32,000 nucleotides of DNA, from NCBI GenBank assembly GCA_964574815.1, contig CAZNPL010000003.1, positions 100,861-132,860 on the forward strand, read 5' to 3'. Positions 1 to 28,441 of this stretch are shown here, piece after piece. This DNA comes from an uncultured Phycisphaeraceae bacterium (GTDB lineage Bacteria; Planctomycetota; Phycisphaerae; UBA1845). A model generated the notes under the pieces. That model searched no databases and had not been told where the DNA came from. It saw only the letters and a program-made list of their open reading frames with translations. The translations under genes and the position numbers were made by a program. How positions within the stretch are numbered: position 1 is the first letter of the stretch; every line of letters starts with the position of its first letter.

Positions 1-17
1 CACGGAGGACGACGACG

Positions 18-9278: not shown

Positions 9279-10088
9279 ATGGCAGACGTGCTCAAGAAAG
9301 TCCAACGCGGCCAGCCGCTGGTCATTCCGGCGAGCACGTTCAACGCCTTCGTGGATGCTGCGCAGGATTTCCAGCGGCGGAAGCTGAGCCAGCAGAGCAC
9401 GGGCCAGTCCACCTCGCGCGACGCCGACGTGGCGATCGTCAAGAATACCAGCGGCGCGGACCGGGCCCGGTTTGAGATTCTGGGGATCAGCGCGCCGGTC
9501 TTCACTCCCACCGACAATCTCGACGAGTTCCGCAATCGGGTGGCGCTTTCCGGCGTGGTGCCCACGGCAGCCAACCACTGGGGCAAGTTCGTCGTCCTGG
9601 CCGAGCCGATTCGCAACGGCCTGCTCGGTCTGGGATGGCTGTCGGGCGTCTGCCCCGTGAAGATCGACATGGCCAACGCCAACCACTGGCACGCAGACGT
9701 TGCCGACAACTCCGCGGCCAATCTCAAAAGCGCCGGAGGCGGTGCGGCGCAGATTCTGTGGAAGGAGAGCGGCACCGGCGTGAAGTGGGCGGTGGTACGG
9801 CTGGGCCGCTGGTCGCCCACGGTGTTCCCGGTGAATCTGACGCAGACCGGGGGTTCGCAGGGCACGACCACGACGGCCGCCAGCTGGACGTACAGCGTCA
9901 TCGACCCCGTCACCAGCCAGACGCTGGCGACTGCCGTAAACCCCACCGTCTCGCCGCACAAATGGAAGCGGCCGTCGGCGGGCTGGATGATCGCGGCCAC
10001 CTTCGGCTACGCCCATTTCAACGCCCAGGCCCAGCTCGTGCTGGGTTGGATCAACGAGATGGTCGAGCAGGAAGCGTGCGCGAGTTGA
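9279..10088 (+). CDS. Phage tail-associated protein, unknown family
   Basis: 269 aa, 3 nt from the previous stop, coding-quality sequence. Confidence 0.5.
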   Translation: MADVLKKVQRGQPLVIPASTFNAFVDAAQDFQRRKLSQQSTGQSTSRDADVAIVKNTSGADRARFEILGISAPVFTPTDNLDEFRNRVALSGVVPTAANHWGKFVVLAEPIRNGLLGLGWLSGVCPVKIDMANANHWHADVADNSAANLKSAGGGAAQILWKESGTGVKWAVVRLGRWSPTVFPVNLTQTGGSQGTTTTAASWTYSVIDPVTSQTLATAVNPTVSPHKWKRPSAGWMIAATFGYAHFNAQAQLVLGWINEMVEQEACAS

Positions 10089-10100
10089 TGGAGCGACATC

Positions 10101-10532
10101 ATGCCCACGGCGGGAAAGGCAAGACTCTTCAAGGTTGGGAAGCGAAGCCTTCGGACCACCGGCAAGGCGCAGCTCTTTACCACCAGCGGCCGATGCTCGG
10201 AATGTTGCACGCCGTACGTGCTGGCCTCGTTCACCACCAACAGCAGCAACCCGACGTGGAACCTGACTCCCTACCAGGGCCCGGGCAAGGCCACGCCGTG
10301 CGCATTCTGGCGGTTGATCGAAACGGGTTCGTGCTATCCCTACTCGTACCCGTGGTACGGAGCCGGCTGCGTGGACAGCACGGGCCGCCTCGTCGGCCTG
10401 CCGAGTTCGTTCACCAGTCAGTACTCGTACAACGGCTACATGCAGCTCCAGATCGGTTGCCGCTCCGCCTCCGGCACGCAGATCAACTGGCCGGGATCAT
10501 GTCAATCCACGTCAAGCGTGTATTCCTGCTGA
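10101..10532 (+). CDS. Cysteine-rich hypothetical phage protein
   Basis: 143 aa with 9 Cys (SGRCSECCTPYVLASF...GSCYPYSYPWYGAGC...IGCRS...SCQS...YSC), in the same plus-strand gene train. Confidence 0.5.
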   Translation: MPTAGKARLFKVGKRSLRTTGKAQLFTTSGRCSECCTPYVLASFTTNSSNPTWNLTPYQGPGKATPCAFWRLIETGSCYPYSYPWYGAGCVDSTGRLVGLPSSFTSQYSYNGYMQLQIGCRSASGTQINWPGSCQSTSSVYSC

Positions 10533-10548
10533 GGAGAGGTAGATAACA

Positions 10549-11745
10549 ATGTTCGACACGATCCACGAACCCGACGTGATGACGCACATGCCATTCCTGA
10601 CCCGCCTGCCTGCGCCCGGGGACGGGCAGGCAGGCGACGGTCAGGGCAAGCGGGTGTTGTTCTACTGCCGATCCGGCCCGGAGGACTTCGACGCGCCCAC
10701 GCAGTCACGGCGATGGAAGCTGTGGGTCGTGGTCGAGGCCGATCAACCCCGACGACTCGAAACCGGCCTCAGCAACGACCTTGCCGAGTGCGCGCCGACC
10801 GCCTGGCACGATGCCACCGGCTGGCACGTGACCTTCATCGCCGGCGGCGCTCCGGACAACCGGCTGTACCACCTCTACCGCATGGATGGCCCGGACCTCG
10901 ACCGGCTGAGCCAGCCCGTGGCCATCCAGGCCACCCGCGCAGGCTTCGTGCTCGGCGACCGTCTCGTGTACGCCGACCCAGAAAACCTGATCTACGTCCG
11001 CCAGCCGTCGGGCGATTTCGACATCGAACTACCAGGCGCGTTCATCTACCGCGTGTCCTACCGCGCCGACGCGGCCGACAAGCTCCTGATCAGCGGCCAA
11101 TGGCAAACCGAGAGCGATGTCTTCGCCATCGAGTACGACCTGATCACCGGCGAGCAGCACCTGCTCGAATCCGACGGCCTGCCGGCCTACAAGTGCACCA
11201 TCCTCGACGACCAGGTCCTCTACGCCCAACGCATCGGCGTCGGCGAACACTTCGAAAACCGTCGGATCACCGCCTCTACCGCGCTGTCCCGCCGCCCCGT
11301 CAACACCATCGTCCGCCGCCAACCCGGCCAGGTCCAACCGATCGTCACGCAACCGACTGGCGACTGCGGCTGCCGTGGCCTCTCGGCAGCGACCGGCGCT
11401 CCTGCCGCACCGACAAGCATGCCCGCGCCGGATTCGCCCGATCCCAGCAGCGCCTCTTCCGAAGCGAGCCCCGAGCCTGTCCCCGTCACCCGCGCATCCT
11501 GCGCGCAATGTATCGAAAAGCACCTCGGGGCCGCCTACGTCCTGCTCACCGAAACGCGAGAAGGCTACGCCCACCGCCTGCGCGCCATCGGCCACCTGCA
11601 CGAAGCCGAGGACGAATCGCAGGAATTCGGTAACCTCCACACCGCCATCCGCGCCGCCCGCAAGGCCTTCCAAACCGACGGCACGATGCCCGACTGGGAA
11701 GCCCTCGCCCAAGCCACAGAAGTGGCTCGTCAGTCCGTACATTGA
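10549..11745 (+). CDS. Hypothetical phage-module protein with C-terminal Cys-containing helical domain
   Basis: 398 aa. Beta-rich N-terminal part (GAFIYRVSYRADAADKLLISGQW...), Pro/Ser linker, then SCAQCIEKHLGAAYVLLTETREGYAHRLRAIGHLHEAEDE. Last plus-strand gene of the module. Confidence 0.5.
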   Translation: MFDTIHEPDVMTHMPFLTRLPAPGDGQAGDGQGKRVLFYCRSGPEDFDAPTQSRRWKLWVVVEADQPRRLETGLSNDLAECAPTAWHDATGWHVTFIAGGAPDNRLYHLYRMDGPDLDRLSQPVAIQATRAGFVLGDRLVYADPENLIYVRQPSGDFDIELPGAFIYRVSYRADAADKLLISGQWQTESDVFAIEYDLITGEQHLLESDGLPAYKCTILDDQVLYAQRIGVGEHFENRRITASTALSRRPVNTIVRRQPGQVQPIVTQPTGDCGCRGLSAATGAPAAPTSMPAPDSPDPSSASSEASPEPVPVTRASCAQCIEKHLGAAYVLLTETREGYAHRLRAIGHLHEAEDESQEFGNLHTAIRAARKAFQTDGTMPDWEALAQATEVARQSVH

Positions 11746-14529: not shown

Positions 14530-15435
14530 TTACGGCTTCTTTACCGCGACGCCTGATGGGGTCTGAGGTTGCGAATTCGCCGGCTTGTTGCCCCCGCACG
14601 TGCTCGTGCCGCCGCCGCAGCAGCCGCCGCCCTTGGGTGGCGTTGCCGCCGCCACGATTGTGTTCTTGTCGGTCGCTCCTACGAACGTGCCCATGACCTT
14701 TCCAGGCGGCGCCAGCAAAACCGTGACCGCCTCCGGGTGGCTCTCACCGAGCCCAAACATCGTCAGGAAATCCACCTCATTCGCATCACTCGGATCAACC
14801 GTGACGACTTCGACGGATCGGGCGTACCGCGGATCCGCCACAAACTCACGTACCCCCTGCAACGCCTGGTCATTGAACTCAGTTTCTGCGTTTTGAACAC
14901 ATAATAGGACATACTTGCGATCCTGAAGCGCTTTCAGGCTCTTTTCGGCGCCCGGGCTGACGAACGCGGCGCGGAGTTGCTGCTCATCGAAGTTCGTGGT
15001 GAAACTCCGAGTGACGGCGCCGCTGGGTCCCATGGCAAGCACAAGCGGCATCGGCGCACGAGACAATCCGTATTTCGCCACCAGCGTCCGCTCCCGGACG
15101 TCCGTGACGTTCACGTCTGCGGAGTCCGCTCGATCTTCTAGGGCTTTCATCCCTGCGTCGAACGCCATGTGTGCAGCCCGTGTGGGCTCGTCATCGGCTC
15201 GATAGAAGAACAGGAAAGTGTACTTGCCGGCCATTGCCGCCCGGTCCATGATTGAGGCGGCGGATTCACTCATGCTATCGCCCGCGTTGCCCGCACCCGG
15301 AATGACGCTGTTCTCGACGGGCGCACCGTCGTTGATTGCGCTGGCGGGTGAATCACTCTGACCCAACGCAATGTTCCCGGAGAAAAGCACCGAAACCATT
15401 GCTACCATCGCTTCTGGGACCCACTTACGAGTCAT
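14530..15435 (-). CDS. Exported thioredoxin-fold-like protein with C-terminal CCGGG/CGG tail
   Basis: Likely start at 15435 (MTRKWVPEAMVAMVSVLFSGNIALGQ, signal peptide-like). Two Trx-like segments (KYTFLFFYRADDEPTRAAH...VNVTDVRERTLVAKYGLSRAPMPLVLAMGPSGAV; KYVLLCVQN...) without a CxxC active site. Ends PPKGGGCCGGGTSTCGGNKP. Confidence 0.65.
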   Translation of the reverse strand: MTRKWVPEAMVAMVSVLFSGNIALGQSDSPASAINDGAPVENSVIPGAGNAGDSMSESAASIMDRAAMAGKYTFLFFYRADDEPTRAAHMAFDAGMKALEDRADSADVNVTDVRERTLVAKYGLSRAPMPLVLAMGPSGAVTRSFTTNFDEQQLRAAFVSPGAEKSLKALQDRKYVLLCVQNAETEFNDQALQGVREFVADPRYARSVEVVTVDPSDANEVDFLTMFGLGESHPEAVTVLLAPPGKVMGTFVGATDKNTIVAAATPPKGGGCCGGGTSTCGGNKPANSQPQTPSGVAVKKP

Positions 15436-15549
15436 CACTGGTTCTCCATGCCACGTACATTCCGCGTTCTTCCTCCAGTCGCTGCGCACCCGTCGTGGCG
15501 TAAGCCGCGCCGACCGGAACATCTTCTCGAATACCGCGCCCCGCGCGGA

Positions 15550-16053
15550 TCACATCCGTTTGTCGTGTGCTGGTTGCCCCTCAATTTCGCGGCGTGTTTT
15601 CCCTTGCGAAGTCGCCCGCGCGAAACCGCGCCCCTTCCCGGTCCGCGTCGCCGTTCCGTTTCGCCCCGCCTTGGCAGCCGGTGACTTTCGATGCCCATTG
15701 CCCGAAACACACTCGCCGCAGCGCCGGTTGCGCCCTTGGAGCGTTTGAAGAGCTTTCAGATCCGCAGCCGTCTGCGGAAAATCCGCCACCGTTTCCGCCA
15801 GCCATTCCACAACGCGCCGGTGCGTGGGCCCGTTCGGCTTCGCCAGGGAGTAGTACATCCACACGCCGTTGCGGCGGTCTTCGACGAGTCCGACGTTTCG
15901 CAAGTGCGCCAGGTGCCGCGAGGCTTTGGACTGCCCGATGTCGAGCACCGTGGTGAGATCGCACACGCACAACTCCCCCCGCGCAAGCAGGTTCAAGATG
16001 CGGAGGCGGGTCTCGTCAGCCAGCGAGCCAAAGAGTCGGGCAATGTTCTGCAT
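15550..16053 (-). CDS. arsR: ArsR/SmtB-family transcriptional repressor with basic C-terminal extension
   Basis: LFGSLADETRLRILNLLARGELCVCDLTTVLDIGQSKASRHLAHLRNVGLVEDRRNGVWMYYSL, with the ELCVCDL arsenic-sensor type motif. Confidence 0.9.
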   Translation of the reverse strand: MQNIARLFGSLADETRLRILNLLARGELCVCDLTTVLDIGQSKASRHLAHLRNVGLVEDRRNGVWMYYSLAKPNGPTHRRVVEWLAETVADFPQTAADLKALQTLQGRNRRCGECVSGNGHRKSPAAKAGRNGTATRTGKGRGFARATSQGKTRREIEGQPAHDKRM

Positions 16054-16325: not shown

Positions 16326-17198
16326 TCACGAACATTTCGGCGGGACCAGCAAAGTGGGCACGATCGTGCGGCGGGCGACATGGAGAGCGACGCTGCCCAT
16401 GAACAACTCGCCAAAATAGCCGCGGCCTTGGGTGCCCATGACAATCAGCGAGTAATCGCCCTGCTCGGCGCGTTGGACGATCTGCTGCTTCGGCAGGCCG
16501 TACGGCAGCTCAATGCTCACCGCCGCTGCGCCCAGTTTCTTCAGACGATCCTCCATGCGTTCCAGCCGTTCGCGGTCGATACGGTTGAACCCATCGAGTT
16601 TGTCCTTGAGGTCGCCGTAGATGCGGCTCTTGTCCTGAACATGCAGGAGCGTTACGCGCCGACCGCCGCTGCGAACGATATCTTCGACGTAGAGGAATGC
16701 GTGTTCGGCGGTATCGGAAAAGTCGGTAGGAAACAACATGTGATCGTGGAAGTCGGTGCAGATCATTTCGCAGCGGTGCTCGGCCTCTTCGGCGATCCGA
16801 AGTTGCGCGATAAACACAGGCACCTCTGCATGATGGGCCACTTCCTGGGCCACGCTGCCCAGCAGCACCTCGCGGGCCAATGTCGCGCCGTGCGAACCGA
16901 TGACAATCATGGAGGCCTGTTTCTCTTTGGCCACTCGCTGAATCTCCCAGGACGGAATGCCCGGGGCGATGACGATTTCGACGGAGAATCCTTGATTCTC
17001 GAGCGTCTGTTTCTGTTGGCAGAGCTTGGGTTCGACCGACGGCGCGAGTAGGTGCTTCATCTCTTCAAGGTGGCGGATACCCAAGGCATGGGTGAGGATG
17101 ACCCGCTCTGTTCCCATCGGTTTCAGACCGTGCAGACAACTGATGATTCGATCGGACGCGGGGGACAGGTCGGAGGCGACGATGGCGGTTTTGAACAT
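16326..17198 (-). CDS. Tandem universal stress protein (two Usp domains)
   Basis: 290 aa. Repeats of ASMIVIGSHGATLAREVLLGSVAQEVAHHAEVPVF and YSLIVMGTQGRGYFGELFMGSVALHVARRTIVPTLLV. Confidence 0.88.
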   Translation of the reverse strand: MFKTAIVASDLSPASDRIISCLHGLKPMGTERVILTHALGIRHLEEMKHLLAPSVEPKLCQQKQTLENQGFSVEIVIAPGIPSWEIQRVAKEKQASMIVIGSHGATLAREVLLGSVAQEVAHHAEVPVFIAQLRIAEEAEHRCEMICTDFHDHMLFPTDFSDTAEHAFLYVEDIVRSGGRRVTLLHVQDKSRIYGDLKDKLDGFNRIDRERLERMEDRLKKLGAAAVSIELPYGLPKQQIVQRAEQGDYSLIVMGTQGRGYFGELFMGSVALHVARRTIVPTLLVPPKCS

Positions 17199-17223: not shown

Positions 17224-18420
17224 TTAGCGACGGTGCTCGGCGCCCGAAACCAGTTGCCGCGTGGTATCGCAGGATTCCTGTTCAGCGACGGCGACAGCGA
17301 CGACTGTGGCGGATACATCGCCGTCTGGATGGACTTTGCCTCCATAAAACTTGCGGAGGAAGAACAAACTTACATGCACCAGGCCGATCAGGACCGGCAC
17401 CTCGACCAGCGGGCCGACGACGGTGGCGAAGGCGACCGGAGAGCCGATACCGAAAACCGCGATCGCGACGGCAATCGCCAGTTCGAAGTTGTTGCCCGAT
17501 GCGGTGAACGCCAGCGTCGCGGCGCGGGCATAATCCACGCCGATCTTCCAGGCCATGAAGAAGCTGACCAGGAACATGATGGCGAAATAAGCACTCAACG
17601 GGATTGCGATCCAAAGCACGTCCAGCGGTTGCGCGATGATCCGCTCGCCCTGCGTGGAGAACATCACGACGATCGTGAACAGCAGCGCCGAGAGCGTGAT
17701 CGGGGAAATCTTCGGCACAAATACGCGGTCGTACCAGTCACTGCCCTTGAGCGGCACGAGAATCACGCGGCTGAGAATCCCCGCGGCGAAGGGGATGCCC
17801 AGGTAGATCATCACGCTGACGAAAATCTCGCCGATACTCACCTCGACCACGGATCCCGTTAACCCGAATAGCGGGGGCAACACGGTCACGAAGATCCATG
17901 CATAGAAGCCAAACGTGACGATCTGGAAAATGCTGTTGAGCGCCACCAGCCCGGCGGCGTATTCGCTGCTGCCCCGGGCAAGCTGATTCCACACCAGCAC
18001 CATCGCGATGCAACGAGCGATGCCGACCATAATCAGGCCGGTCATGTACAAACCCCAGCGTTCGTCCGGGCCGAACAACGCCGGGGCGATAAACCCGAAG
18101 AAGACGATCGCCAGCACGAACATTAGCACCGGCCCGACGATCCAATTCTGCATCAGCGACAGGCCCACCACCTTCACGTCCGCGAAGACCTTGGGCATCA
18201 GCTCGTACTTCACCTTCGCCAGCGGCGGGTACATCATCAGGATCAGCCCGACGGCGATGAGCAGGTTCGTATGCTCACCCACGGTCAGCGCGTGGTTGAA
18301 GCGTTCAACGCCCGACTGGAAGAAATAGCCGATCGCCACGCCAACAGCCATGGCCGCGAAGATCCAGACCGTCAGGTAGCGGTCGAGCAGGGACAGTTTC
18401 CTGGTGATTCCTGGTTCCAT
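17224..18420 (-). CDS. acr3: ACR3-family arsenite efflux permease
   Basis: [103 protein letters not shown]. Confidence 0.95.
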
Positions 18421-18444
18421 ATTTTGAGCATCCTTTCAGTCGAT

Positions 18445-18885
18445 TCAGCGTTGCCGACGTTTGATCAGTCGGACGCACCTGCCCTTTCGGCAGAAGCTGA
18501 TTCTGTCTAGAAGAGACTGCATCAGGAGCAGCCCCCGTCCATGGGCGAGTTCGAGGTGTCGCGCGTCGGTCGGATCAGCAACCAGCGAGGGATCGAATCC
18601 CTCCCCTTCATCGATCACGCGGATTTCCGCCTCGTCATCGGCGATATGGTACTTGACAACGATCCATTTGTCGGGCACGCGGTGGTTGCCATGTAAATAT
18701 GCGTTGGCGAGGGCCTCCGAAAGGCCGAGCGTAAGAGCAAAGACCTCGGACTCCGAGCATTGTCTGCGCACCGCCTCAGCCGTTATCTCCGAGCGTACGT
18801 TGGCAATCTCCGAGTGCGTACTATGAATCGCCACTGTCTTGAAGTTCTTCACTCGGTGCTCTCGATCTTCGTCAGTCGCCTTCAT
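18445..18885 (-). CDS. HATPase-fold serine/threonine kinase, anti-sigma (RsbW)-like
   Basis: VFALTLGLSEALANAYLHGN (N-box) and EIRVIDEGEGFDP (G1 box), HGRGLLLMQSLLDRI. Confidence 0.82.
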   Translation of the reverse strand: MKATDEDREHRVKNFKTVAIHSTHSEIANVRSEITAEAVRRQCSESEVFALTLGLSEALANAYLHGNHRVPDKWIVVKYHIADDEAEIRVIDEGEGFDPSLVADPTDARHLELAHGRGLLLMQSLLDRISFCRKGRCVRLIKRRQR

Positions 18886-18910
18886 GGTTCGCTCCTCGAC
18901 GCGATTCCTT

Positions 18911-19936
18911 TCAAGACGTCCTTTCGCAGGCTTCGGTCAGCTCCCTCAGCGATGGGTAGCTACCCTGTTTAATGATCTGACCATTGATTATCGTAATAGG
19001 CAGTTCGCTCGATCCTCGGCCCTCTTTCATGGCGCTCACAACGGTCTTGTTCTCCATGAATTTGTGGGGCTCCTTGTTGGGCACGACGCGATGGACAGCG
19101 ATGACGTTTCCAACCCGGCGCTCTAGGTGGGTGAGGGCTTGGTTAAAACGCATGAGTTCCTCGTACAAATCGGGACCGCACATCCCGCTAACGCAACACA
19201 TGGGCGGCGTAAACACTTCGATGGTCATATCGTAGCTGTCCGGCATTTGTGTCTCCGCGATATTGTGTATCTCGACCTCCGCCTGCCGGTCGGGGCGCGT
19301 CGCTGTTACTTCGCGGTCATCCCGCTTCAACGGAGGGACTCTGACCACGAAATTACTTACAAATCCGGAATCGTATTGCCGGAACTCAAGTTGCAGCCCA
19401 TCGAGAATGGCTGCAATTGCGTCGACGCGGCATGGGTTTTCGTAATGAGACTCGCCGCGTTCGGCGTTCTCGGCTCGTACCGCCAACAGGCCGCGGGAAT
19501 TGAGGTCAGCGATCGCGAGTACCCCCGACGGTCGGCACACGCGCACCATCTCCTCGAGAGCCGCGCGACAGTCCGGCATGTGATGTATCGAGTCGAACGA
19601 GAATACGGCGTCGAACGTCGCGGCAGCGAGCGGCAACCGCAGCGCGTCGGCATGGATGAAATCAACGCGGGCGGCAACATCCGAACCAACGGCCTTCAAT
19701 CGCTGCCGAGCGCGATCAAGCACACCTCGGTCGATATCCACGGTCACGACATTGAAACCGCGCTCGGCCAGGATCATCGCCATCCACCCCGAGCCTGTCC
19801 CGACGTCCAACACGTGTGACCCGGGAATGTCCCCGACCAATCGCACAAGGTCTGATCGGGCACGGACAGTATCGAAGCCGTACCGTTCCTTCAGCGCCTG
19901 CATGCTCGGTGTGACTCGATCCGTTTTCTCGGCCAT
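18911..19936 (-). CDS. Class I SAM-dependent methyltransferase fused to a C-terminal ArsD-like domain
   Basis: Probable start at 19936 (MAEKTDRVTPSMQALKERYGFDTVRARSD) within track ORF 18911-20170. Motif I VLDVGTGSGWMAMILAE, FDAVFSFDSIHHMPD, then ArsD-like IEVFTPPMCCVSGMCGPDLYEELMRFN...FMENKTVVSAMKEG...LPITIINGQIIKQGSYPSLREL. Confidence 0.85.
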   Translation of the reverse strand: MAEKTDRVTPSMQALKERYGFDTVRARSDLVRLVGDIPGSHVLDVGTGSGWMAMILAERGFNVVTVDIDRGVLDRARQRLKAVGSDVAARVDFIHADALRLPLAAATFDAVFSFDSIHHMPDCRAALEEMVRVCRPSGVLAIADLNSRGLLAVRAENAERGESHYENPCRVDAIAAILDGLQLEFRQYDSGFVSNFVVRVPPLKRDDREVTATRPDRQAEVEIHNIAETQMPDSYDMTIEVFTPPMCCVSGMCGPDLYEELMRFNQALTHLERRVGNVIAVHRVVPNKEPHKFMENKTVVSAMKEGRGSSELPITIINGQIIKQGSYPSLRELTEACERTS

Positions 19937-20004
19937 ATTACGACTCCCGCGAGCGTCCCCTACGCGACGATTTCCGGCAATCTCTTGCACGATTGCTGTG
20001 CCCT

Positions 20005-20226
20005 TCAACCGCTCGTCTCGCGTTGGCCACACAACTCTCTCGACCCACGCGGATCTGCTACCACGGGCCGAGCGCTCTCCGAGGCGCAGTTCGGACATCG
20101 TATCCGATGGTCCTTTCCATACGCTGCCGACCTGGCCATGGAGGCATGGGACTCGAACAACTCGAAGCACTCGTCGCAGAAGTAGCAGTTCACCGATAGG
20201 TGTTTTTCGGTAACGCGCCTTTTCAT
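20005..20226 (-). CDS. Small putative zinc-ribbon-like protein
   Basis: 73 aa ORF between two confident same-strand genes: YFCDECFELFESHASMARSAAYGKDHRIRCPNCASESARP, two CxxC knuckles. Starts 26 nt after the arsA stop. Confidence 0.45.
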   Translation of the reverse strand: MKRRVTEKHLSVNCYFCDECFELFESHASMARSAAYGKDHRIRCPNCASESARPVVADPRGSRELCGQRETSG

Positions 20227-20251
20227 GACAGTTTCCTTTCAGGTTTGGCGA

Positions 20252-22042
20252 TCAGACGTTCGCGACCGTCTCGACCGCTGGTTGGGTCAACTCGCGCAGC
20301 CGATCGGGACCGATTGGTTCCTCGATCAGCCAGGGCGAGAGGGCCAAACGCTTCGCATGCCCGTCTCGTACCTTCTGAATCTGCAACTGCTCGGATCTGG
20401 CCCGCGCCACCAACAGCGGATCGCTTGGTCCGGCCGCGGCCAACGACGCATTAATGATCCAGGCCCATGGTTCAATCTTTGCCCGACGCAGGTCTTCCTG
20501 GAGGGCTGCGGCCTCCAGCACGGGTGTCGTCTCCGGCAGCGTGACGATCAGAATCTTGGTCTGCTTCGGATCTTGAAGCCGCATCAAAGGCGTGACGATC
20601 CTGGTCCCCGCTTTGAGGTGTCGCACGATGTCGCGGTGATACGAGCCGGTCGCATCTAACAACAACAGCGTATGGCCGGTCGGCGCCGTATCCATGACAA
20701 CGAACTTCTGTTGCGCTTCGCGGATGATCTTCGAGAATGCCTGGAACACGGCGATTTCTTCGGTGCAGGGCGAGCGCAGGTCTTCTTCCAGGAGTGCCCG
20801 GCCTTGTTCGTCGAGGTCGGCCCCCTTCGTCGCAAGCACATGCCGGCGATAGCGATCGGTCTCAGCTTGCGGGTCAATCCGGCTGATCTCCAGGCGATCA
20901 ACCCGCGATTCGATGGTCGAGGCCACGTGTGCCGCGGGGTCGGTGGTGGTCAGATGCACATCATGTCCGCGCGACGCCAATTCTACCGCCACGGCCGCGG
21001 CGATGGTCGTCTTGCCGACGCCGCCCTTGCCCATGACCATCACCAGCCCATGCCCGTCCGCCTCGATCTCGTCCACGAGCTGGCCAAGCGACGGAACATC
21101 GGTCGACGGCAGTGGCGTCTGTGGTTCAGATGCGTCTACCGCGAAACCCGTCGGCTGCAACAACCGGCGCAGCGCCGCAACTCCGACGAGGTTTCCCGGT
21201 TGCAGAAACACACGGTCGGTCTGTAAGTCGTTGAGCCGCTCCGGCAAAGATTCCATTGCCTGTCGATCGCGTTGCTGCATGGCGTAAGCGAGCGGATCAT
21301 CGCTTGAGACTTGCGGCATCAGGCCGTTGATGATCAACCGTTGATTCTTGACGCCCAGCGCCGCCAGTTCCGCGCTGGTGCGCGCCGCCTCGTTCAATGC
21401 CGCCGTCTGTGGGCGACCGACCAGGATCAACGTCGTACGCGAGGGTTCGGCCAGCGCATCGACCGCGGCTTTGTACTGCTGCCGCTGCTTTTCCAAGCCC
21501 GCCAGGGGGCCGAGACAGGATGCGCCATTCTGGTTGCTATCCAGGAAGCTCGACCAGGCGCTTGGCAGCCTCAGCAGACGCAGCGTATGGCCGGTCGGCG
21601 CGGTGTCGAAAATAACGTGGTCGAATCCGGCGGTCTTCCGTTCATCCGCCAACAGCGCGGTGAACTCATCGAACGCCGCAATCTCCGTCGTGCATGCCCC
21701 GGAAAGCTGTTCCTCCATGCTGCGGACGGCCTTCTCCGGCAGTGCGCCGCGCACCGGTCCAACGATACGGTCACGATAGCTCTGCGCAGCGGACTCCGGG
21801 TCGATGTTCAAAGCCCAGAGATTGGGCACGGCCGGGATCGGCGTGGGCGCATGTTCACCGATGTCAATCTCGAAGACATGCGCGAGATTGGACGCGGGGT
21901 CGGTGCTCACCAGGAGCACGCGCTTGCCCTCGTCGGCCAGCTGCACCGCCGTTGCACAAGCCAGGGACGTCTTGCCCACCCCGCCCTTGCCGGTGAAAAA
22001 CAAGTATCGCGTAGACTGATCATACCAGGTCATCGCAACCAT
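20252..22042 (-). CDS. arsA: Arsenite efflux ATPase ArsA, tandem NTPase domains
   Basis: Two P-loops, FFTGKGGVGKTSLACATA and VMGKGGVGKTTIAAAVAVELA, and two DTAPTGHTL(R/L)LL motifs. Start chosen at MVAMTWYDQSTRY inside track ORF 20252-22114. Confidence 0.93.
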   Translation of the reverse strand: MVAMTWYDQSTRYLFFTGKGGVGKTSLACATAVQLADEGKRVLLVSTDPASNLAHVFEIDIGEHAPTPIPAVPNLWALNIDPESAAQSYRDRIVGPVRGALPEKAVRSMEEQLSGACTTEIAAFDEFTALLADERKTAGFDHVIFDTAPTGHTLRLLRLPSAWSSFLDSNQNGASCLGPLAGLEKQRQQYKAAVDALAEPSRTTLILVGRPQTAALNEAARTSAELAALGVKNQRLIINGLMPQVSSDDPLAYAMQQRDRQAMESLPERLNDLQTDRVFLQPGNLVGVAALRRLLQPTGFAVDASEPQTPLPSTDVPSLGQLVDEIEADGHGLVMVMGKGGVGKTTIAAAVAVELASRGHDVHLTTTDPAAHVASTIESRVDRLEISRIDPQAETDRYRRHVLATKGADLDEQGRALLEEDLRSPCTEEIAVFQAFSKIIREAQQKFVVMDTAPTGHTLLLLDATGSYHRDIVRHLKAGTRIVTPLMRLQDPKQTKILIVTLPETTPVLEAAALQEDLRRAKIEPWAWIINASLAAAGPSDPLLVARARSEQLQIQKVRDGHAKRLALSPWLIEEPIGPDRLRELTQPAVETVANV

Positions 22043-22088
22043 TCCTTTCCAAGTCGTCGTCCATCCGTTCCCATTCGCCACTCGCGCC

Positions 22089-22703
22089 TCAGCAGCAACC
22101 GCCGCTGTCGCCACAACAGCCGCCTTGCGGAGCGGCCTCCGGCATCAGGTGCTTCTGTGCAAGTCGGATCACGTTGTTGGTCGCCTGCTCCGATACCCGC
22201 AGGGCCACGTTGACGGCCTGAATCATGTCCTCGCTGGCGATGCCGAGTTCGACCGCCCTCCGGTGGTGATACCGAAAGCACGGCTCGCAATGAGCGGCGA
22301 CTGCCGCGCCCAGTGCGATCAGCTCGGCAACGCGCTCATCGTAGATCGGTGCCTGCTCGACCCGCGCAGCCTGCTGATCGGTTGCAGTCGAGTCTCTCCC
22401 ATTCAAACCGGCCAGTTCTGACAAACGCTCACGAGATGGGTATTCACCGTGACTGACCACGCTGCCGTCGATGACGACCACGGGCAGACCATCTCCATCG
22501 TTCTCGTCCAACACTCGCTTGACTTGCGGGTTTTGAGCGAAAGCGGCGGGCTCTTGCGCCAGGTTGAAACGTCGGACCTTCACTCCGCGGTCTTCAATCC
22601 ACTTGAGATCGGCGGTGAAGCGGGCCAGCCGCGGATCCGGCTCGGGACCACACACGCCGGTCGTACAGCACATGGGCGGATCGAAAACTTCAATACTGGT
22701 CAT
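22089..22703 (-). CDS. arsD: ArsD metallochaperone domain fused to a carboxymuconolactone decarboxylase/AhpD-like domain with Cys-rich tail
   Basis: IEVFDPPMCCTTGVCGPEPDPRLARF...GLPVVVIDGSVVSHGEYPSRERL (ArsD), then ELIALGAAVAAHCEPCFRYHHRRAVELGIASEDMIQAVNVA (CMD with CxxCxxxH), ending GGCCGDSGGCC. Confidence 0.9.
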   Translation of the reverse strand: MTSIEVFDPPMCCTTGVCGPEPDPRLARFTADLKWIEDRGVKVRRFNLAQEPAAFAQNPQVKRVLDENDGDGLPVVVIDGSVVSHGEYPSRERLSELAGLNGRDSTATDQQAARVEQAPIYDERVAELIALGAAVAAHCEPCFRYHHRRAVELGIASEDMIQAVNVALRVSEQATNNVIRLAQKHLMPEAAPQGGCCGDSGGCC

Positions 22704-22821: not shown

Positions 22822-23196
22822 CTAGCATCGATAACATGCGCATAACTCCTTGGGGTCCTGCTTGCGAATCTGTGCCAGGCTCTGATCGTCCGAGACCACG
22901 CGCGGCTCGCCGTCCAACGACTCCAGAACCCAGCGCAGCGCCCGCTTGGCGACGGGCGGAGTATCCTTTCCCGCCAGGCGGAAATAGTGCCAGCGGCCTT
23001 CCTTCCGGCGCTCGACCAGCCCCGCCGTCAGCAGCAGGTCGAGATGCTTGGAAACCGTGGAAGGCGCCAGCCCGAGCAACTCGACGACCTGACAGAGGCA
23101 CAGTTCGCCGTCTCGCAGGGCAAGCAGCGCCCGCACCCGCGTCTCGTCGCTGAGCGCCTTTGTGATCGTCAGGAATTCCCGCATGGTTGGCTCCAT
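22822..23196 (-). CDS. arsR: ArsR-family transcriptional repressor
   Basis: ITKALSDETRVRALLALRDGELCLCQVVELLGLAPSTVSKHLDLLLTAGLVERRKEGRWHYFRL. Confidence 0.9.
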   Translation of the reverse strand: MEPTMREFLTITKALSDETRVRALLALRDGELCLCQVVELLGLAPSTVSKHLDLLLTAGLVERRKEGRWHYFRLAGKDTPPVAKRALRWVLESLDGEPRVVSDDQSLAQIRKQDPKELCACYRC

Positions 23197-23411: not shown

Positions 23412-23700
23412 TCACAGGATTCTGAAAACGAACACGAGCGAGAAGTAAACACCTACGGCGATGAAGATGAACCCTGTCGCTGTCCGCGCCCAGCGTTCGA
23501 AGGTGGCCACCTGTTGGAACGCTCGGGCCACGACTCCCGCCCCGGCAGCGATGGCCAGCGCGAACAAGAGAACCGGCAGCGCCGTTCCCAACCCAGAGGC
23601 CAATGGGAGCAAGAAGCGAGACTCAAACTTGATCGAAATCGGCACCAGGCTGCCGAAGAACAGCGCCGCCGACGCGGGACAGAATGCGAGGGCGAACTCC
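23412..23700 (-). pseudogene. 3' portion of an ArsG-like (DsbD/CcdA-related) permease, N-terminal half missing
   Basis: Frame reads FALAFCPASAALFFGSLVPISIKFESRFLLPLASGLGTALPVLLFALAIAAGAGVVARAFQQVATFERWARTATGFIFIAVGVYFSLVFVFRIL, like the C-terminal half of such permeases. Upstream residues in this frame are an out-of-frame reading of the DGC gene. Confidence 0.7.
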
Positions 23701-23949
23701 CGCCGTTTCCAGGACGCGGCGGGCGCAATGGTCTTCGCAACCATCCAGCGCGATGCGCATGCCCGCACCCCGCGTTCGGACGAGCTTGTCCTCCTTCCCC
23801 GCGGCTATGGCGCTCAAGCAGAACATCTGCGCCACGCCCTCCTTGGTCAGGTCCAAGGCCGCTCGATTGGTGAGCTGCACGCAGTACGCCGCCCCGGCGC
23901 ACGCAAATACCAGCACCTCCCCGTCCACGGATCGACAGCAGGAACTCAT
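23700..23949 (-). pseudogene. 5' portion of a DGC-domain (putative zinc-binding) protein gene, truncated
   Basis: ATG at 23949 overlaps the RND stop (ATGA). MSSCCRSVDGEVLVFACAGAAYCVQLTNRAALDLTKEGVAQMFCLSAIAAG...RIALDGCEDHCARRVLETAG, after which family-like sequence is lost. Confidence 0.65.
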
Positions 23950-26900
23950 AGAACACCTCCATCTGGCGCGGTCGCTGTCCCGACACCGTGCTGCATTGAC
24001 CCTTGGATCAGGCCCACAGCGACGGCGGAAGGAGCGCGCCGCGTAAAGACCACGTACAGGCACGGCATCAGGAACAGGGCGACGGCCATCTCCATAAGCA
24101 GGCCGCCTATCGCGGCGGCGGCCATGGGCTGGAGCATGTCGCCGCCCTCCTCGATGGCCAGCGCGAGCGGAATAAAGCCAACCAGGATGGCGACGGTGGT
24201 CATGACGCGCGGGCGCAGGCGGATCTTCGCCGCCTGCACGACGGCGTTCCGCGGGGTCGTTCCCTCGCCGGCCCGCAGCGCGTTGGCGAAGGTCAGGAGC
24301 AACACGCCGTCGTTGACCGTGGCGGCCACAACCACCAGGACGCCGATGATGACCGTCGCCCCGAGCGGCAGGTCGGTGGCGAGCATGATGAAGACCAGCC
24401 CGGTCAGGCAGAACGGCACGCTGCCCAGGATGAGCGCGGGCAGCTTGAGGCTGTCGAACTGCACGGCCAAGACGATGAACGAAAAAAAGATTGCGAAGAC
24501 CAGGATCGCAAGCACCGTCTGCTGCATCTCGGCCATCATCTGCGCCTGCCCGCCGAAGCTGAAGTCGTACCCGACGGGGCGCTCTTTGCCCGCCAGGGAC
24601 GCCTGGAGTTCCGCCAGCGCCTGCCCGACGCTGACACCGGCGGCGTCGCCGCGCACGATGACCTCCTTGACCTGGTCTTCGCGCACGATCTCGACGGGGC
24701 CGACCGCCTCGCTGACCTCGGCTACGTCCTTGAGGCGCAGGTAGCCGCCCTGGGCGCAGTTGAGCGGGAGGTTCTCCACTTCGAGCCGACTGACGATCCT
24801 GCTCTCGGGGATCATGACGCGGATGTTGTAATACTCGTCGTGATCGCGAAAGCGCGTCGCGACCGCGCCGGTGATCAACGAACGCATGGTATCCGCGATA
24901 TCCGCGATGGAGACGCCCAGCTCCGCGGCCCGCTGTCGGTCTACAACCACCTGATATTCGGGTTTGGTCATGTCCATCGAGACATAGACGTTCGTAAAGT
25001 GCGCGAGCTCGTTCATCGAGCCGGCGGTCTGGCGAGCGAGACTGTAAAGGGTGGGGATATCCCGCCCCTTGATCTTCACTTCGATGTCGGCGTCGCCCAG
25101 CTTGCGGATGCCCTTGACCTTCATCTGCATGACCATGGCCATCCCGCCGGGGACCGGGACTTTGGCCACGATCGGACGCAGATAGTCGATGTAGGCCCGC
25201 GTGCTCACGTCGCGCTGGTGACGCGGGACGAGCTGGATATTCAGCTCACCTTCGTTGGCGATCTCGTAGGTGTACAACCCCCACACCTTGCCGCCCGACA
25301 GCGTGAACAGGCTCTCAATCCGCTCGTCCTCTCCGATGCGTTGCTCGAGTTGGGCCAGGACGGCGTCCGTCTCCGCCAGGGACGCGCCGGTCGGCAACTT
25401 CACCTTGACCATGATCCGGCCATCGTCCATCTGGGGCAGAAACTCGGTGCCCAACCGGCCCATCAGGAGAACGGCCAACACGAGTATCCCCACGAACGCG
25501 GGTATCGCGATCCAGCGTCCGCGGATCGCCTTCTCCAGTGTCCAGCCGTAAGCCTCGGTTACCCGCTCGAAAAAGCGCTCGAAGCGGGCGACTTTGCGGC
25601 TTCCTGTCGCCCGGCCTAACACGAGGGCCGTGATCATCGGCGTCACAGTAACCGCCATGGCCAGGCTAATGATGACGATGCCCGCGATAACCAGGATCAA
25701 CTCGCGAAACAGCAGACTGACCAGGCCAGGCACCAGCAAAAACGGCACGAACAGCGCCAGGAACGATAGCGTGGCGGCTACGATGGCCGGGCCGATTTCT
25801 GCCGTGGCATCGACGACCACCGCGTCGGTTGGGGCGTCCGGGCGGTCGTGTCGGCGGCGCGTGATGGTCTCAATGACGACAATCGAGTTGTCCACCAGAA
25901 CGCCGATCGCAATCACCAGTCCGCCCAGCGAAAAGATGTTGAGTGAGAAACCCGCCACTTTCATCAGGCCGAAGTTCAGAACGAGCGTCAGCGGCAAAGC
26001 CAGCATGATGACCAGCACCTGTCGCCACGAACCGAGGAACAACCAGACGATGAGAATGACCAAGATCGCTGCTTCGACCGCCGCATTGCGCACGCCGTTC
26101 AGCGCGGCCTCAACATAATCCGCCTGGTTCTCGACCATGCCCAGGCTCACGCCTTCCGGCATGGCGGGGCCGAGTTCGGCGATCCGGCCGTTGACGGCTT
26201 TGGCCACTTCGACGGTATTGGCATTGGCCTGCTTGAGCACGCTCAGCTTTACGCAGGGGTTGCCGTCCAACCGCGTGATGACCCGCGCCTCTTCGTGCGA
26301 ATCGAGCACCTCGGCCACATCACGCAAATAGACCTTCTTCTGGTCTTCACGAACGAGCAGGACATCTCGGATCTCATCAAGCGATTTGTATTCGCCCATC
26401 GCACGGGCGATGATCTCCTTGGGCCCCACGGTCACGCGCCCGCCGAACTGCTCGATGTTCTCGGCTCGCAATCGTTGCAGAACGCCCGGCAGCGACAGGC
26501 CGTACTTCTCCAGGGCGTCCGGATCGAGATGCACGCGGATTTCCCGCTTGAGGCCGCCGACGATCTCTGTGCCTGCCACGCCCGGGACGGCCAGCAGTTG
26601 GTCCTGGAGCCATTCATCCACCCAGGTGCGCAGTTTCGTCAGGTCCCATTGCTCGCTGCTGATGGTCAACTGCACGACGGGAAGCTGTGAGGGGTCCGCC
26701 TTGATCATCACCGGCGGATCCATGTCCTTGGGCAGCTCGCGTGCCACGCGGGCCATGGCAGCCAGCGCGTCCTGATACGCCACATCCACGTTCACGCCGT
26801 ACTTGAAGTTGGCCTGTAGCGTGTACATGCCCTCGATGGACGACGACTCGAGGTAGTCCAGGTCGTCCACCGTGGCCATCTGGCGCTCGATCGGATCGGC

Positions 26901-27089
26901 GATGTTCTTATCGATCTCCTCCGGCGTGGCGCCGCGCCACCAGATGTGTACCTTGATCATGGGGTAGGTGATGTTCGGCAGGAAGTCCACTGGCAGACGC
27001 CATAGGCCGTAGAGCCCAAGCACCACCAAGGCCACGACAATCGCGCTGGTGGCCAGACGTCGATGAACGGCATAGTGCGTCAGCTTCAT
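23946..27089 (-). CDS. RND-family efflux transporter permease subunit
   Basis: 1047 aa AcrB/MdtB/CusA-like: RLPVDFLPNITYPMIKVHIWWRGATPEEIDKNIADPIERQM, ARVARELPKDMDPP, SLGGLVIAIGVLVDNSIVVIE, ATVNDGVLLLTFANALR. Confidence 0.93.
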   Translation of the reverse strand: MKLTHYAVHRRLATSAIVVALVVLGLYGLWRLPVDFLPNITYPMIKVHIWWRGATPEEIDKNIADPIERQMATVDDLDYLESSSIEGMYTLQANFKYGVNVDVAYQDALAAMARVARELPKDMDPPVMIKADPSQLPVVQLTISSEQWDLTKLRTWVDEWLQDQLLAVPGVAGTEIVGGLKREIRVHLDPDALEKYGLSLPGVLQRLRAENIEQFGGRVTVGPKEIIARAMGEYKSLDEIRDVLLVREDQKKVYLRDVAEVLDSHEEARVITRLDGNPCVKLSVLKQANANTVEVAKAVNGRIAELGPAMPEGVSLGMVENQADYVEAALNGVRNAAVEAAILVILIVWLFLGSWRQVLVIMLALPLTLVLNFGLMKVAGFSLNIFSLGGLVIAIGVLVDNSIVVIETITRRRHDRPDAPTDAVVVDATAEIGPAIVAATLSFLALFVPFLLVPGLVSLLFRELILVIAGIVIISLAMAVTVTPMITALVLGRATGSRKVARFERFFERVTEAYGWTLEKAIRGRWIAIPAFVGILVLAVLLMGRLGTEFLPQMDDGRIMVKVKLPTGASLAETDAVLAQLEQRIGEDERIESLFTLSGGKVWGLYTYEIANEGELNIQLVPRHQRDVSTRAYIDYLRPIVAKVPVPGGMAMVMQMKVKGIRKLGDADIEVKIKGRDIPTLYSLARQTAGSMNELAHFTNVYVSMDMTKPEYQVVVDRQRAAELGVSIADIADTMRSLITGAVATRFRDHDEYYNIRVMIPESRIVSRLEVENLPLNCAQGGYLRLKDVAEVSEAVGPVEIVREDQVKEVIVRGDAAGVSVGQALAELQASLAGKERPVGYDFSFGGQAQMMAEMQQTVLAILVFAIFFSFIVLAVQFDSLKLPALILGSVPFCLTGLVFIMLATDLPLGATVIIGVLVVVAATVNDGVLLLTFANALRAGEGTTPRNAVVQAAKIRLRPRVMTTVAILVGFIPLALAIEEGGDMLQPMAAAAIGGLLMEMAVALFLMPCLYVVFTRRAPSAVAVGLIQGSMQHGVGTATAPDGGVL

Positions 27090-28441
27090 GGCGTAGCGCC
27101 TTCCCTCCCCGCCGGTGTGCTTGTACCTGCTTCAGGTTTGCCAGCCGGCTTGCCGGGCCCCGCTACGCGCACTTCGATGCCGTCCTTGAGCTTCTCCTGC
27201 CCGGCGATGACGACCTTCTCTCCTACCTCCAGACCGGTCAGCACTTGCACCCGACCAATCTGTTCGATACCGGTTCGAACCTTTCTCTGGATGGCCTTGC
27301 CGTCAACGACGACAAACACTGCTTGGGCGCCAGTCGGCGTCACGCTGACTGCCTGGAGCGGTACAGTCACGGCACCGTCTACAAACTCCAGCTCCAGCCT
27401 GACGCGCGCGAACATGCCCGGCATCAGCGCCACCGGCTGGTCCAAGACCAGTTCAACGGTCCGCGTCCGCATCCTGCGATCCAGCTCGGGGTAGACGCGC
27501 GTTACCTTTCCCGTGAAGCTCTTGCCCGGCAGCGCATCCAGAACGACGGCGGCCGCGGTCCCCTCCTGCACTGCGGGCACATGCGCCTCCGGCACAGCCA
27601 CGCGGATTACGAGCGATGACAGGTCGGCCATTTCCAGCAACGGCGCTCTCGGCGCGGCCATATCACCGGCCCGTACATGCACGCGCGTGATCGTGCCGGA
27701 GAAGGGAGCCAGGATCACACACTCGCCGAAACGGGCCCGTGCCAGATCCAGCTTGGCATCGGCCTCTTTGACCACCGCCTCTTGCACAGCAATCGCCGTG
27801 CGCGTGTAACCCTCCTCGAGCATTTCCAGGTTACGCCTGGCGGCGGAAAGCTTGGCCTGTTCCGCGACGTACTCCACGCGTGCCTTGTCCAGCGCCTCAC
27901 CGGGTAGCGAGCCGCTTTCCACGAGCTGCGTGATGCGTTCGAGATCGCTCTTGGCGAAGTTGGCGCTCTCTTCGAGCTGGCGGACGGTCTCCGTAGCCTT
28001 CAGGATTTCCTCCGGGCGCGTCCCCGCTTTCAGGTCTTCCAGCTTGGCCGTGGCTACTTCCAATGCGGCCTCGGCCGCCTTGACCTCGGCGCGATAGACC
28101 TCTCGGCTGATCTCGATGAGCTTCGTGGGGCTCTCGGCCGTCGACTCCACGCGGTCGCCTTCGCGCCAGGGACAGTAGCTGATCGGACCCTCGACCGTGG
28201 CGGCAATGACAACTGACTCGACCGCCACCGTTTCGCCGGTCAGGTCAAGCTCACGGGATATCCGTTCGTGTTGTGCTGTTTCAACGGCGACTGTGGGGAT
28301 CTTCTTCTTGCCTCCAACCCCCGTTCCGTCCTGCGTGCCGCCACAGCCACCGAGGTTTGCAGACCACACTACCCCGGCCGCCCAAAGCACCAGAAGAAGA
28401 CCTCCGCGAGCCGTCGTTGCATGCCACCACGCGTTTTTCAT
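27086..28441 (-). CDS. Efflux RND transporter periplasmic adaptor (HlyD-type) subunit
   Basis: LTGETVAVESVVIAATVEGPISYCPWREGDRV, coiled-coil region, ILAPFSGTITRVHVRAGDMAAPRAPLLEMADLSSLVIRVAVPE, VPLQAVSVTPTGAQAVFVV. 4-nt overlap with the RND gene. Confidence 0.93.
   Translation of the reverse strand: MKNAWWHATTARGGLLLVLWAAGVVWSANLGGCGGTQDGTGVGGKKKIPTVAVETAQHERISRELDLTGETVAVESVVIAATVEGPISYCPWREGDRVESTAESPTKLIEISREVYRAEVKAAEAALEVATAKLEDLKAGTRPEEILKATETVRQLEESANFAKSDLERITQLVESGSLPGEALDKARVEYVAEQAKLSAARRNLEMLEEGYTRTAIAVQEAVVKEADAKLDLARARFGECVILAPFSGTITRVHVRAGDMAAPRAPLLEMADLSSLVIRVAVPEAHVPAVQEGTAAAVVLDALPGKSFTGKVTRVYPELDRRMRTRTVELVLDQPVALMPGMFARVRLELEFVDGAVTVPLQAVSVTPTGAQAVFVVVDGKAIQRKVRTGIEQIGRVQVLTGLEVGEKVVIAGQEKLKDGIEVRVAGPGKPAGKPEAGTSTPAGREGATP

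Follow-up and report, generated by a model that had tools for sequence, protein, structure and literature searches.

The stretch of DNA analyzed here (32,000 nucleotides of contig CAZNPL010000003.1 from an uncultured Phycisphaeraceae bacterium, referred to hereafter as the window) carries on its minus strand an arsenic resistance (ars) operon in which one open reading frame (ORF) joins an S-adenosylmethionine (SAM)-dependent methyltransferase (MT) to an ArsD-like domain. Read along that strand, the operon comprises ArsR, ArsD::CMD, ArsA, a Zn-ribbon ORF, the MT::ArsD-like fusion, HATPase_c_2, ACR3, and Usp, with a spacing of ~25 nucleotides (nt) around the fused gene and 68 nt from the Zn-ribbon ORF to the MT start. 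As judged from its sequence, the fused protein points to an unrecognized family of arsenic-operon enzymes rather than to a standard arsenic methylase. The fused ORF and its constituent features are as follows (pLDDT, predicted local distance difference test, from AlphaFold2):

18911..19936, minus strand: MT::ArsD-like fused ORF, 341 residues plus stop (MT, linker, ArsD-like domain)
19337..19909, minus strand: class-I SAM methyltransferase domain, residues ~10–200 (pLDDT ~95)
19511-19810, minus strand: Methyltransf_11 core, residues 43–142 (Pfam E 5.9e-25, 88 bits against a cut-off of 21.2)
19580..19585, minus strand: H118-H119, invariant in the MT family and aligned with RebM H140/H141
19568..19570, minus strand: C123 (HHMPD-C), a near-invariant, family-specific cysteine in alignments A2/A3
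19430..19447, minus strand: H164...C169 (GESHYENPC), in the region after β5, His invariant and Cys near-invariant in alignments A2/A3
19229..19321, minus strand: interdomain linker, residues 206–236, predicted to be disordered (pLDDT <50 at 210–230)
18914..19228, minus strand: ArsD-like thioredoxin-fold domain, residues 237–341, opening with an in-frame ATG (M237)
19178..19198, minus strand: cysteine triad C247-C248-x4-C253 (MCCVSGMCG), equivalent to ArsD Cys12/13/18

The fused reading frame is genuine

The original prediction, made from the letters of the window, had placed at 18911-19936 a Rossmann methyltransferase that runs in frame into an ArsD-like domain with a CC(x4)C motif. Its coordinates proved exact; Pfam finds both domains, the junction between them is open, and the motif (MCCVSGMCG) is present as C247, C248, and C253. 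The protein begins MAEKTD... from an ATG at 19936, which is preceded 7–8 nt upstream by GGGAG and agrees with the N-terminus of the closest homologue (P0002). Given this support, and because the extension from a GTG at 20170 would overlap the conserved Zn-ribbon ORF (20005-20226) in another frame, the GTG was rejected as the start of the fused gene. No stop or frameshift lies between the MT and ArsD-like domains of the fused ORF, and both alternative frames contain stops near the junction.

The source is apparently a metagenome-assembled genome (MAG) and one population is known, which would favor an artefact in which a sequencing or assembly error had joined two ORFs. Against this, the identical 341-residue product (P0377) is present on two Logan assemblies from different runs, L008 (SRR7048222) and L009 (SRR7048227), the DNA of both being 100% identical to window positions 18218-20786, and the fused protein is also encoded on a 242-kb NCBI contig. 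Recovery of the same DNA and product from two independent read sets and from this contig makes assembly error very unlikely, such that we consider an artefactual origin highly improbable: the fusion stands, and the two-domain, translationally fused protein is genuine. All three assemblies represent one population and therefore do not demonstrate evolutionary persistence.

The methyltransferase half differs from ArsM

By motif, acidic residue, and Rossmann-like fold, the MT half is a class-I SAM methyltransferase (Methyltransf_11/25). The SAM-binding features are conserved (LDVGTGSG as the GxGxG motif, the acidic D67 after β2, and D97), and the MT model has Foldseek matches to many SAM methyltransferases. 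Its best sequence and structure neighbors are the sugar O-methyltransferases RebM and AtmM, together with other small-molecule methyltransferases.

By profile comparison, the METHYLTRANSFERASE half of the fused protein is not ArsM. The NCBIfam ArsM model (NF008823) scores the fused protein at 45.8 bits against a cut-off of 263, while true ArsM controls (P0254, L011, L007) reach 301–319 bits with the same model. None of the curated NCBIfam MT models reaches its cut-off for the fused protein, and no NCBIfam model does so for any tested member of the MT family described below. Identities as a DVU_1556-family protein and as UbiE/MenG were both rejected, with scores far under the respective cut-offs.

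The same conclusion follows residue by residue, and here the suspicion that the MT half lacks the canonical ArsM cysteine layout, first formed by eye, is borne out. In a profile–profile alignment with canonical ArsMs (hhalign), the SAM core alone aligns (residues 31–149, 99.3% probability); within it, the cysteine of the ArsM SNC(V/I)xNL motif falls opposite D115, and C123 of the MT falls opposite an ArsM Lys, not Cys. The N-terminal ArsM cysteines (CC / GCG.P) are absent, residues 1–122 containing neither Cys nor an N-terminal domain, and the MT core begins ~38 residues after the protein start. C169 lies 25 residues past the conserved Asp, compared with 22 for the ArsM GC(I/V)AGA cysteine, and the profile alignment stops at residue 149.

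An unnamed methyltransferase family of ars operons

Close homologues of the MT half (P0002–P0012) are ~200 residues long and share 45–70% identity with it. We defined the family through alignments A2 (25 sequences) and A3, and scanned genomes with an alignment of 9 closer sequences. The family motifs are YGFDT, (D/E)xxHH(M/L)PDC, and GExH(Y/E)EN(P/E)C (typically YGFDT, DSMHHMPDC, and GESHYENPC in the close homologues), and the fused protein has all of them. Across the 25-sequence alignment, H118, H119, and H164 are invariant, with C123 and C169 near-invariant; of the two most distant family sequences, P0248 lacks both cysteines and P0250 lacks C123 and has Cys at neighboring positions only.

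Where the flanking DNA suffices, core ars genes usually lie beside the MT (L001/2, L003–6, L013–16, L018, L039, and L053), in Planctomycetota, Gemmatimonadota, Omnitrophota, and unclassified lineages; core ars genes were not seen in L012 and L017/L040 within the DNA stretch available. This ~200-residue family is an unnamed accessory gene of ars operons across several phyla, and we found nothing specific on it in the literature. Loci used below are:

L001/L002: syntenic Planctomycetota operon; Zn-ribbon, MT, then HATPase_c_2
L013: Bythopirellula; ars-associated MT locus
L014: Gemmatimonadaceae; MT locus with a canonical ArsM
L015: ArsR, Zn-ribbon, Usp, MT, ArsD, ArsA, ACR3
L016: Omnitrophota; CMD, MT, ArsD, ACR3
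L003–L006, L012, L046: larger redox/metal cluster, with ArsP, ArsC, ACR3, and ArsR nearby (L012: no core ars genes within the stretch)

Fusion at the C-terminus recurs within the family: P0002 (from the syntenic operon) bears a GNAT-like domain there, and three further members (P0006, P0007, and L039, 7953-9005) bear CoA_binding_2. In L015 and L016, arsD is directly downstream of the MT gene, an arrangement that lends Rosetta-stone support to the fusion in the window.

Two further observations concern the standalone members. The cluster around them (L003, 1-13000; L006; L012; L046) is conserved, with genes for thioredoxin, DsbD, ArsR, two unknown small proteins, a 91-residue ferredoxin, Thioredoxin_3, glutaredoxin-like, SufC-like and SufBD-like proteins, and the MT, along with CMD, DUF169, CoA_binding_2, Zn_ribbon_8, RseC, and Zip. 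In a Pirellulaceae MAG (L017, 7800-11251; L040, 2229-5680), extra partial MT copies flank the Zn-ribbon gene and may be remnants of tandem duplication.

The ArsD-like half is a divergent paralogue

Residues 238–338 of the fused protein hit the ArsD family in Pfam (PF06953, E 1.8e-23, 83.6 bits against a gathering score of 27), as the original prediction had anticipated for the C-terminal part. With the NCBIfam ArsD model (NF033727) the score of 83.8 bits is slightly below the cut-off of 90, and the domain is therefore best described as a family member and not an equivalog. It matches solved ArsD structures (3ktb, E 1.3e-14; 3mwh, E 1.1e-10), and an alignment with R773 ArsD and six further ArsDs pairs C247, C248, and C253 with their triad. 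Identity to the ArsD of ArsD::CMD in the same operon is 39%. These alignments lead us to class the ArsD-like half as a divergent paralogue of ArsD in which a three-cysteine, predicted As(III) site is retained.

A word-indexed search with the ArsD-like domain alone returned no match, which reflects the sensitivity limit of that method; an exhaustive HMMER search recovered a small subfamily comprising P0244/P0378 and P0255/P0379 as its nearest relatives (54–64% identity). P0379 carries the database label "ArsD family protein, Planctomycetota", and two small insertions (of three residues and one residue) are common to the window domain and its own subfamily only. These closest relatives are standalone or Zn-ribbon-fused (P0378). 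The ArsD-like genes of L007, L010, and L011 are 59–64% identical to the window domain and lie in loci with ArsR, ArsC, canonical ArsM, ACR3, and Peptidase_M1, and no ArsA. The fused gene itself is two genes downstream of arsA, and the canonical arsD-arsA position is taken by ArsD::CMD. This occupied slot, along with the loci of relatives that have no ArsA, suggests that the ArsD-like subfamily may serve a partner other than ArsA.

In the L007 (10001-10480), L010 (2060-2656), and L011 (10001-10459) genes, the first cysteine of the triad is replaced by Arg (PPMRCASGMCG), leaving a two-cysteine site; by sequence, these Arg-bearing relatives could be chaperones for something besides As(III)/ArsA.

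Rarity of the architecture

Among 1.84 billion representative proteins, this MT family is joined to ArsD in the fused protein only, and matches above ~110 bits are MT-only or ArsD-only, the query excepted. No plasmid record covering at least 80% of the fused protein was found. The same search of representatives returned three fusions of canonical ArsM to ArsD, namely P0254 (408 residues), P0275 (447 residues), and P0314 (400 residues), each exceeding both the ArsM and the ArsD cut-offs. A methyltransferase joined to ArsD is therefore not new as an architecture, and the pairing recurs independently. The literature searched yielded nothing specific on MT::ArsD or ArsM::ArsD fusions, but SAM methyltransferase::ArsD proteins are already in the databases as ArsM::ArsD. 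One such gene (P0254; L076, 8001-9227) sits in the order ArsR, MIP, ArsM::ArsD, ArsA, and another (L078, 1105-2307) follows LMWPc and C_GCAxxG_C_C.

Operon and genomic context

The genes that accompany the fused ORF in its operon are:

22822..23196, minus strand: ArsR repressor (ArsR1), head of the operon (HTH_5, E 5.8e-15)
23244-23216: promoter-like site directly upstream of ArsR1, score 10/12 (another directly precedes ArsR2; the total number of sites equals chance expectation)
22089..22703, minus strand: ArsD::CMD, a canonical-type ArsD directly upstream of ArsA (ArsD, E 3.4e-42; CMD, E 1.1e-6)
20252..22114, minus strand: ArsA ATPase (TIGR04291, 877 bits against a cut-off of 650)
20005..20226, minus strand: Zn-ribbon ORF, 73 residues (CxxC...CPxC), directly upstream of the MT, with weak Zn_ribbon_8 matches
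18445..18885, minus strand: HATPase_c_2 (RsbW-like) gene, 25 nt downstream of the fused gene (Pfam E 1.6e-23)
17224..18420, minus strand: ACR3 arsenite efflux permease (TIGR00832, 407.5 bits against a cut-off of 282.8)
16326-17198, minus strand: Usp, last gene of the operon

The operon thus contains, as had been noticed at the outset, a second and separate fusion (ArsD::CMD), so that two ArsD domains with different partners are encoded together. ArsD::CMD scores 121 bits with the NCBIfam ArsD model, against the cut-off of 90. Its family is widespread and not special to this operon: 1038 matches pass the threshold, and the best 120 all have the ArsD domain, 119 of them with CMD in addition. The AhpD-like protein of the window ends in a GGCCGDSGGCC tail; many family members are from Planctomycetota, and we saw no literature on the family.

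Two of the immediate neighbors of the fused gene also accompany the MT family elsewhere. The Zn-ribbon ORF has 53% identity to L002:7962-8183 and 50% to the N-terminus of P0378 (Zn-ribbon::ArsD-like); it is kept directly upstream of the MT in Planctomycetota, and its relatives in L013, L015, L003, and L017 carry a terminal cysteine tail of the GCCG type. HATPase_c_2 is a conserved MT neighbor in Planctomycetota, occupying the same position in L001/L002 and L013, and has no STAS or sigma-factor partner nearby.

Three ArsR-family genes in the window (30218-30547, 22822-23196, and 15550-16053, all on the minus strand) each head a unit. The first of these precedes an OEP-MFP-RND efflux system (28438-29907, 27086-28441, and 23946-27089), an arrangement suggestive of RND efflux under metalloid control. 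An ORF for a hydrophobic protein of 118 residues (23412-23768, minus strand), situated between ArsR1 and the RND pump gene, has no Pfam match. Downstream of the operon are the second ArsR, a thioredoxin-like protein with a Cys tail, FtsX/ABC genes, and an arsenate reductase (LMWPc). A 330-residue protein encoded at 14530-15522 (minus strand) has a weak AhpC/TSA match and the tail GGGCCGGGTSTCGG; its residues 193–292 share 37% identity with the extension at the C-terminus of the L015 ArsD (9884-10576), and the L016 ArsD has a C-terminal extension with a similar Cys-rich tail. This shared extension points to another recurrent ArsD partner domain.

At the far end of the window, positions 3-2075 (plus strand) encode a phage capsid domain (PF25209, E 3e-43), followed by ~9 kb of ORFs with no Pfam match, and the first ~11.7 kb looks prophage-derived and borders directly on the resistance island. 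Several window genes have their closest relatives in Planctomycetota (Bythopirellula, Pirellulaceae).

Two domains on a predicted flexible tether

An AlphaFold2 model of the fused protein, built on an alignment (A6) in which both halves are correctly aligned, has a mean pLDDT of 85.6, with values of ~95 for the MT (residues 10–200) and 59–94 for the ArsD-like domain. The latter (residues 237–340) is modeled as β-α-β-α-β-β-α, as expected of a thioredoxin-like fold, and its cysteine loop (residues 249–253) has pLDDT <50. Two folded domains on a linker predicted to be disordered are what would be expected of a tethered module.

The linker has no homologue beyond L008/L009. An MT might have been inserted into an ancestral Zn-ribbon::ArsD-like gene of the kind seen in P0378; the linkers share no detectable similarity. 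A different origin would be a recent, neutral read-through between adjacent ars genes, in which case the two halves would act independently and the ArsD-like domain would be a second chaperone for ArsA/ACR3. The fusion is a singleton, its three assemblies all stemming from one population and agreeing in DNA at 100% identity, and this favors such an event, as does the in-frame ATG (M237) that opens the ArsD-like domain; by a rough estimate, ~31 stop-free linker codons would arise by chance at this guanine–cytosine (GC) content with a probability of ~0.3, and the ArsM::ArsD gene for P0254 still lies directly upstream of arsA, which suggests fusion by adjacency. Set against these points, the internal ATG has no Shine–Dalgarno-like sequence at a useful distance (the nearest GGAG being ~24 nt upstream), the GC content of the linker by codon position (GC1>GC2<GC3) is that of the flanking coding sequence, and the C-terminus of the MT family repeatedly gains partner domains. 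In no relative do the MT and a member of this ArsD-like subfamily stand next to each other, in that order, as two genes, so the fusion did not arise simply through a stop codon being lost between neighbors already in place. On this evidence we regard neutral read-through as unlikely.

Proposed mechanism

We tentatively propose, with less than even confidence, that the fused protein is an ArsR-controlled enzyme whose tethered ArsD-like domain loads As(III) onto the MT, which then methylates it. Induction through ArsR would lead the operon to express the fused protein; the ArsD-like domain, on its flexible tether of ~30 residues, would use C247/C248/C253 to bind As(III), or another soft metalloid like it, as a tris-thiolate; and the metalloid would be handed by thiol exchange to a C123/C169/His site of the MT, which would transfer a methyl group to it from SAM. 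ArsD::CMD, upstream of ArsA, would meanwhile feed a separate ArsA/ACR3 efflux route. The data establish the fusion, what its two domains are, the conserved residues, the association with ars operons, and the linker disorder; which substrate is used, transfer from one domain to the other, and a part for C123/C169 in catalysis are inferred from these.

Several lines of evidence support such a scheme. The cysteine triad is intact and H118/H119/H164 and C123/C169 are conserved; the MT family repeatedly adjoins core ars genes across phyla; and, by analogy, there is a precedent in TtArsM (TTC0109) of Thermus thermophilus, a non-canonical arsenite methyltransferase that lacks the canonical Cys set and carries an extra metalloid-binding part (PMC8649762). 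The proposed arsenic site of that enzyme comprises H40, C77, and H179, and its appended part is N-terminal and ArsR-like; its activity indicates that methyltransferases not of the ArsM type are able to methylate As(III) (PMC8649762).

Several observations weigh against arsenic methylation by the fused protein. Every alignable ArsM cysteine is missing from the MT, with alignment to ArsM restricted to the SAM core; the Foldseek top 50 contain no ArsM structure, the nearest being sugar and small-molecule O/N-methyltransferases; no confident or fixed interdomain interface is predicted by AlphaFold2; and the fusion is a singleton among the representatives searched. H118/H119/D144 align with RebM H140/H141/D166, the proposed acid/base residues of that enzyme, which would suit an O–H or S–H nucleophile, and this His-His/Asp set appears compatible with O/S/N-methylation as much as with arsenic methylation. 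Canonical ArsM shares a locus with the MT family in L014, L039, and L053; the family is therefore probably not simply an ArsM replacement, and its substrate may be other than As(III). In addition, the family fusions to GNAT-like and CoA_binding_2 domains hint at a CoA- or thiol-linked substrate.

Many of these points would be accommodated if the MT acted on a thiol, a CoA-linked or hydroxyl compound, or an organoarsenical made or needed under arsenic stress, with the ArsD-like domain as a sensor/regulator or bystander chaperone. The conserved RebM-type set, the nearest structures, the fusions to CoA_binding_2 (P0006, P0007, L039) or a GNAT-like domain (P0002), the neighboring CoA_binding_2, CMD, thioredoxin, glutaredoxin-like, and SufBD-like genes, and the presence of ArsM in the same locus all favor this alternative. 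It sits less easily with the tight and repeated placement of the MT in ArsR-led operons beside arsD/arsA/ACR3, and the two conserved cysteines of the substrate region would suit a soft-metalloid ligand at least equally; nor did we find a pathway for an alternative substrate encoded in the window. We consider action on a non-arsenite substrate of this kind possible, if on balance improbable.

Returning to metalloid methylation, the MT family might constitute a second class of metalloid (As/Sb) methyltransferase that is independent of ArsM and needs a thiolate donor module for loading. The MT would then be a two-cysteine/histidine acceptor, with its donor supplied in trans (by neighboring genes) or in cis (by the ArsD-like domain here, and by CoA-binding elsewhere). 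We judge so general a role rather doubtful; if true, the fused protein would be the Rosetta stone exposing the donor–acceptor pair.

In anoxic environments such as paddy soils, sediments, and bioreactors, the toxicity and mobility of arsenic are governed by its methylation, a process at present ascribed to arsM nearly without exception. The MT family described here, a second one found in ars operons across phyla and in one lineage hard-wired to an ArsD-type domain, is a candidate for unrecognized arsenic chemistry or arsenic-linked thiol chemistry. Should the family not act on arsenic, it would still represent an unannotated accessory function of ars operons, along with one ArsD subfamily that has partners beyond ArsA. 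We find the unnamed MT family more interesting than the singleton fusion, which is its best experimental handle.

Comparison with known systems

The canonical ArsM::ArsD fusions share with the fused protein an N-terminal SAM methyltransferase, a C-terminal ArsD with CCx4C, and an ars-operon context. They differ in both halves: theirs is a true ArsM (300.7 bits against 263, with all conserved cysteines) joined to a canonical ArsD (111 bits against 90), often with a C-terminal Cys-rich tail and directly upstream of arsA, whereas the fused protein combines a different, unnamed MT family with a divergent ArsD paralogue, and lies two genes downstream of arsA.

Taken separately, each half has a familiar counterpart. 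The ArsD-like domain resembles R773 ArsD (PDB 3mwh, 3kgk, 3ktb) in its thioredoxin-like fold, Cys12/13/18 triad, and ars-operon location, but is 27–39% identical to known ArsD, is fused to an enzyme, is non-adjacent to arsA, and lacks the C-terminal vicinal cysteines. The MT shares a class-I SAM core and occurrence in ars operons with ArsM/AS3MT (NF008823); ArsM, by contrast, is ~280 residues long with an N-terminal Cys domain, and the window MT, at ~200 residues, has neither that domain nor an alignable GC(I/V)AGA cysteine. RebM and AtmM (PDB 3bus, 6uv6) are the best matches to the MT by sequence (E 4.8e-21) and by Foldseek (E 2e-13), yet these are natural-product tailoring enzymes with no ars context and without C123, H164, C169, or an ArsD domain. 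Compared by description, TtArsM has its ArsR-like part at the N-terminus where the fused protein has ArsD at the C-terminus, and its H40/C77/H179 positions are not those of C123/H164/C169.

ArsD also has other fusion partners, which show it to be promiscuous within ars operons: ArsD::CMD (>1000 relatives), ArsD::thioredoxin-like (L015, L016), Zn-ribbon::ArsD-like (P0378), and ArsN–ArsD, reviews mentioning ArsN fused to ArsC or ArsD (PMC6205960). ArsD mostly occupies the N-terminus of these proteins, joined to an acetyltransferase or to a redox or Cys-rich module; in the fused protein of the window, ArsD instead lies C-terminal to a methyltransferase.

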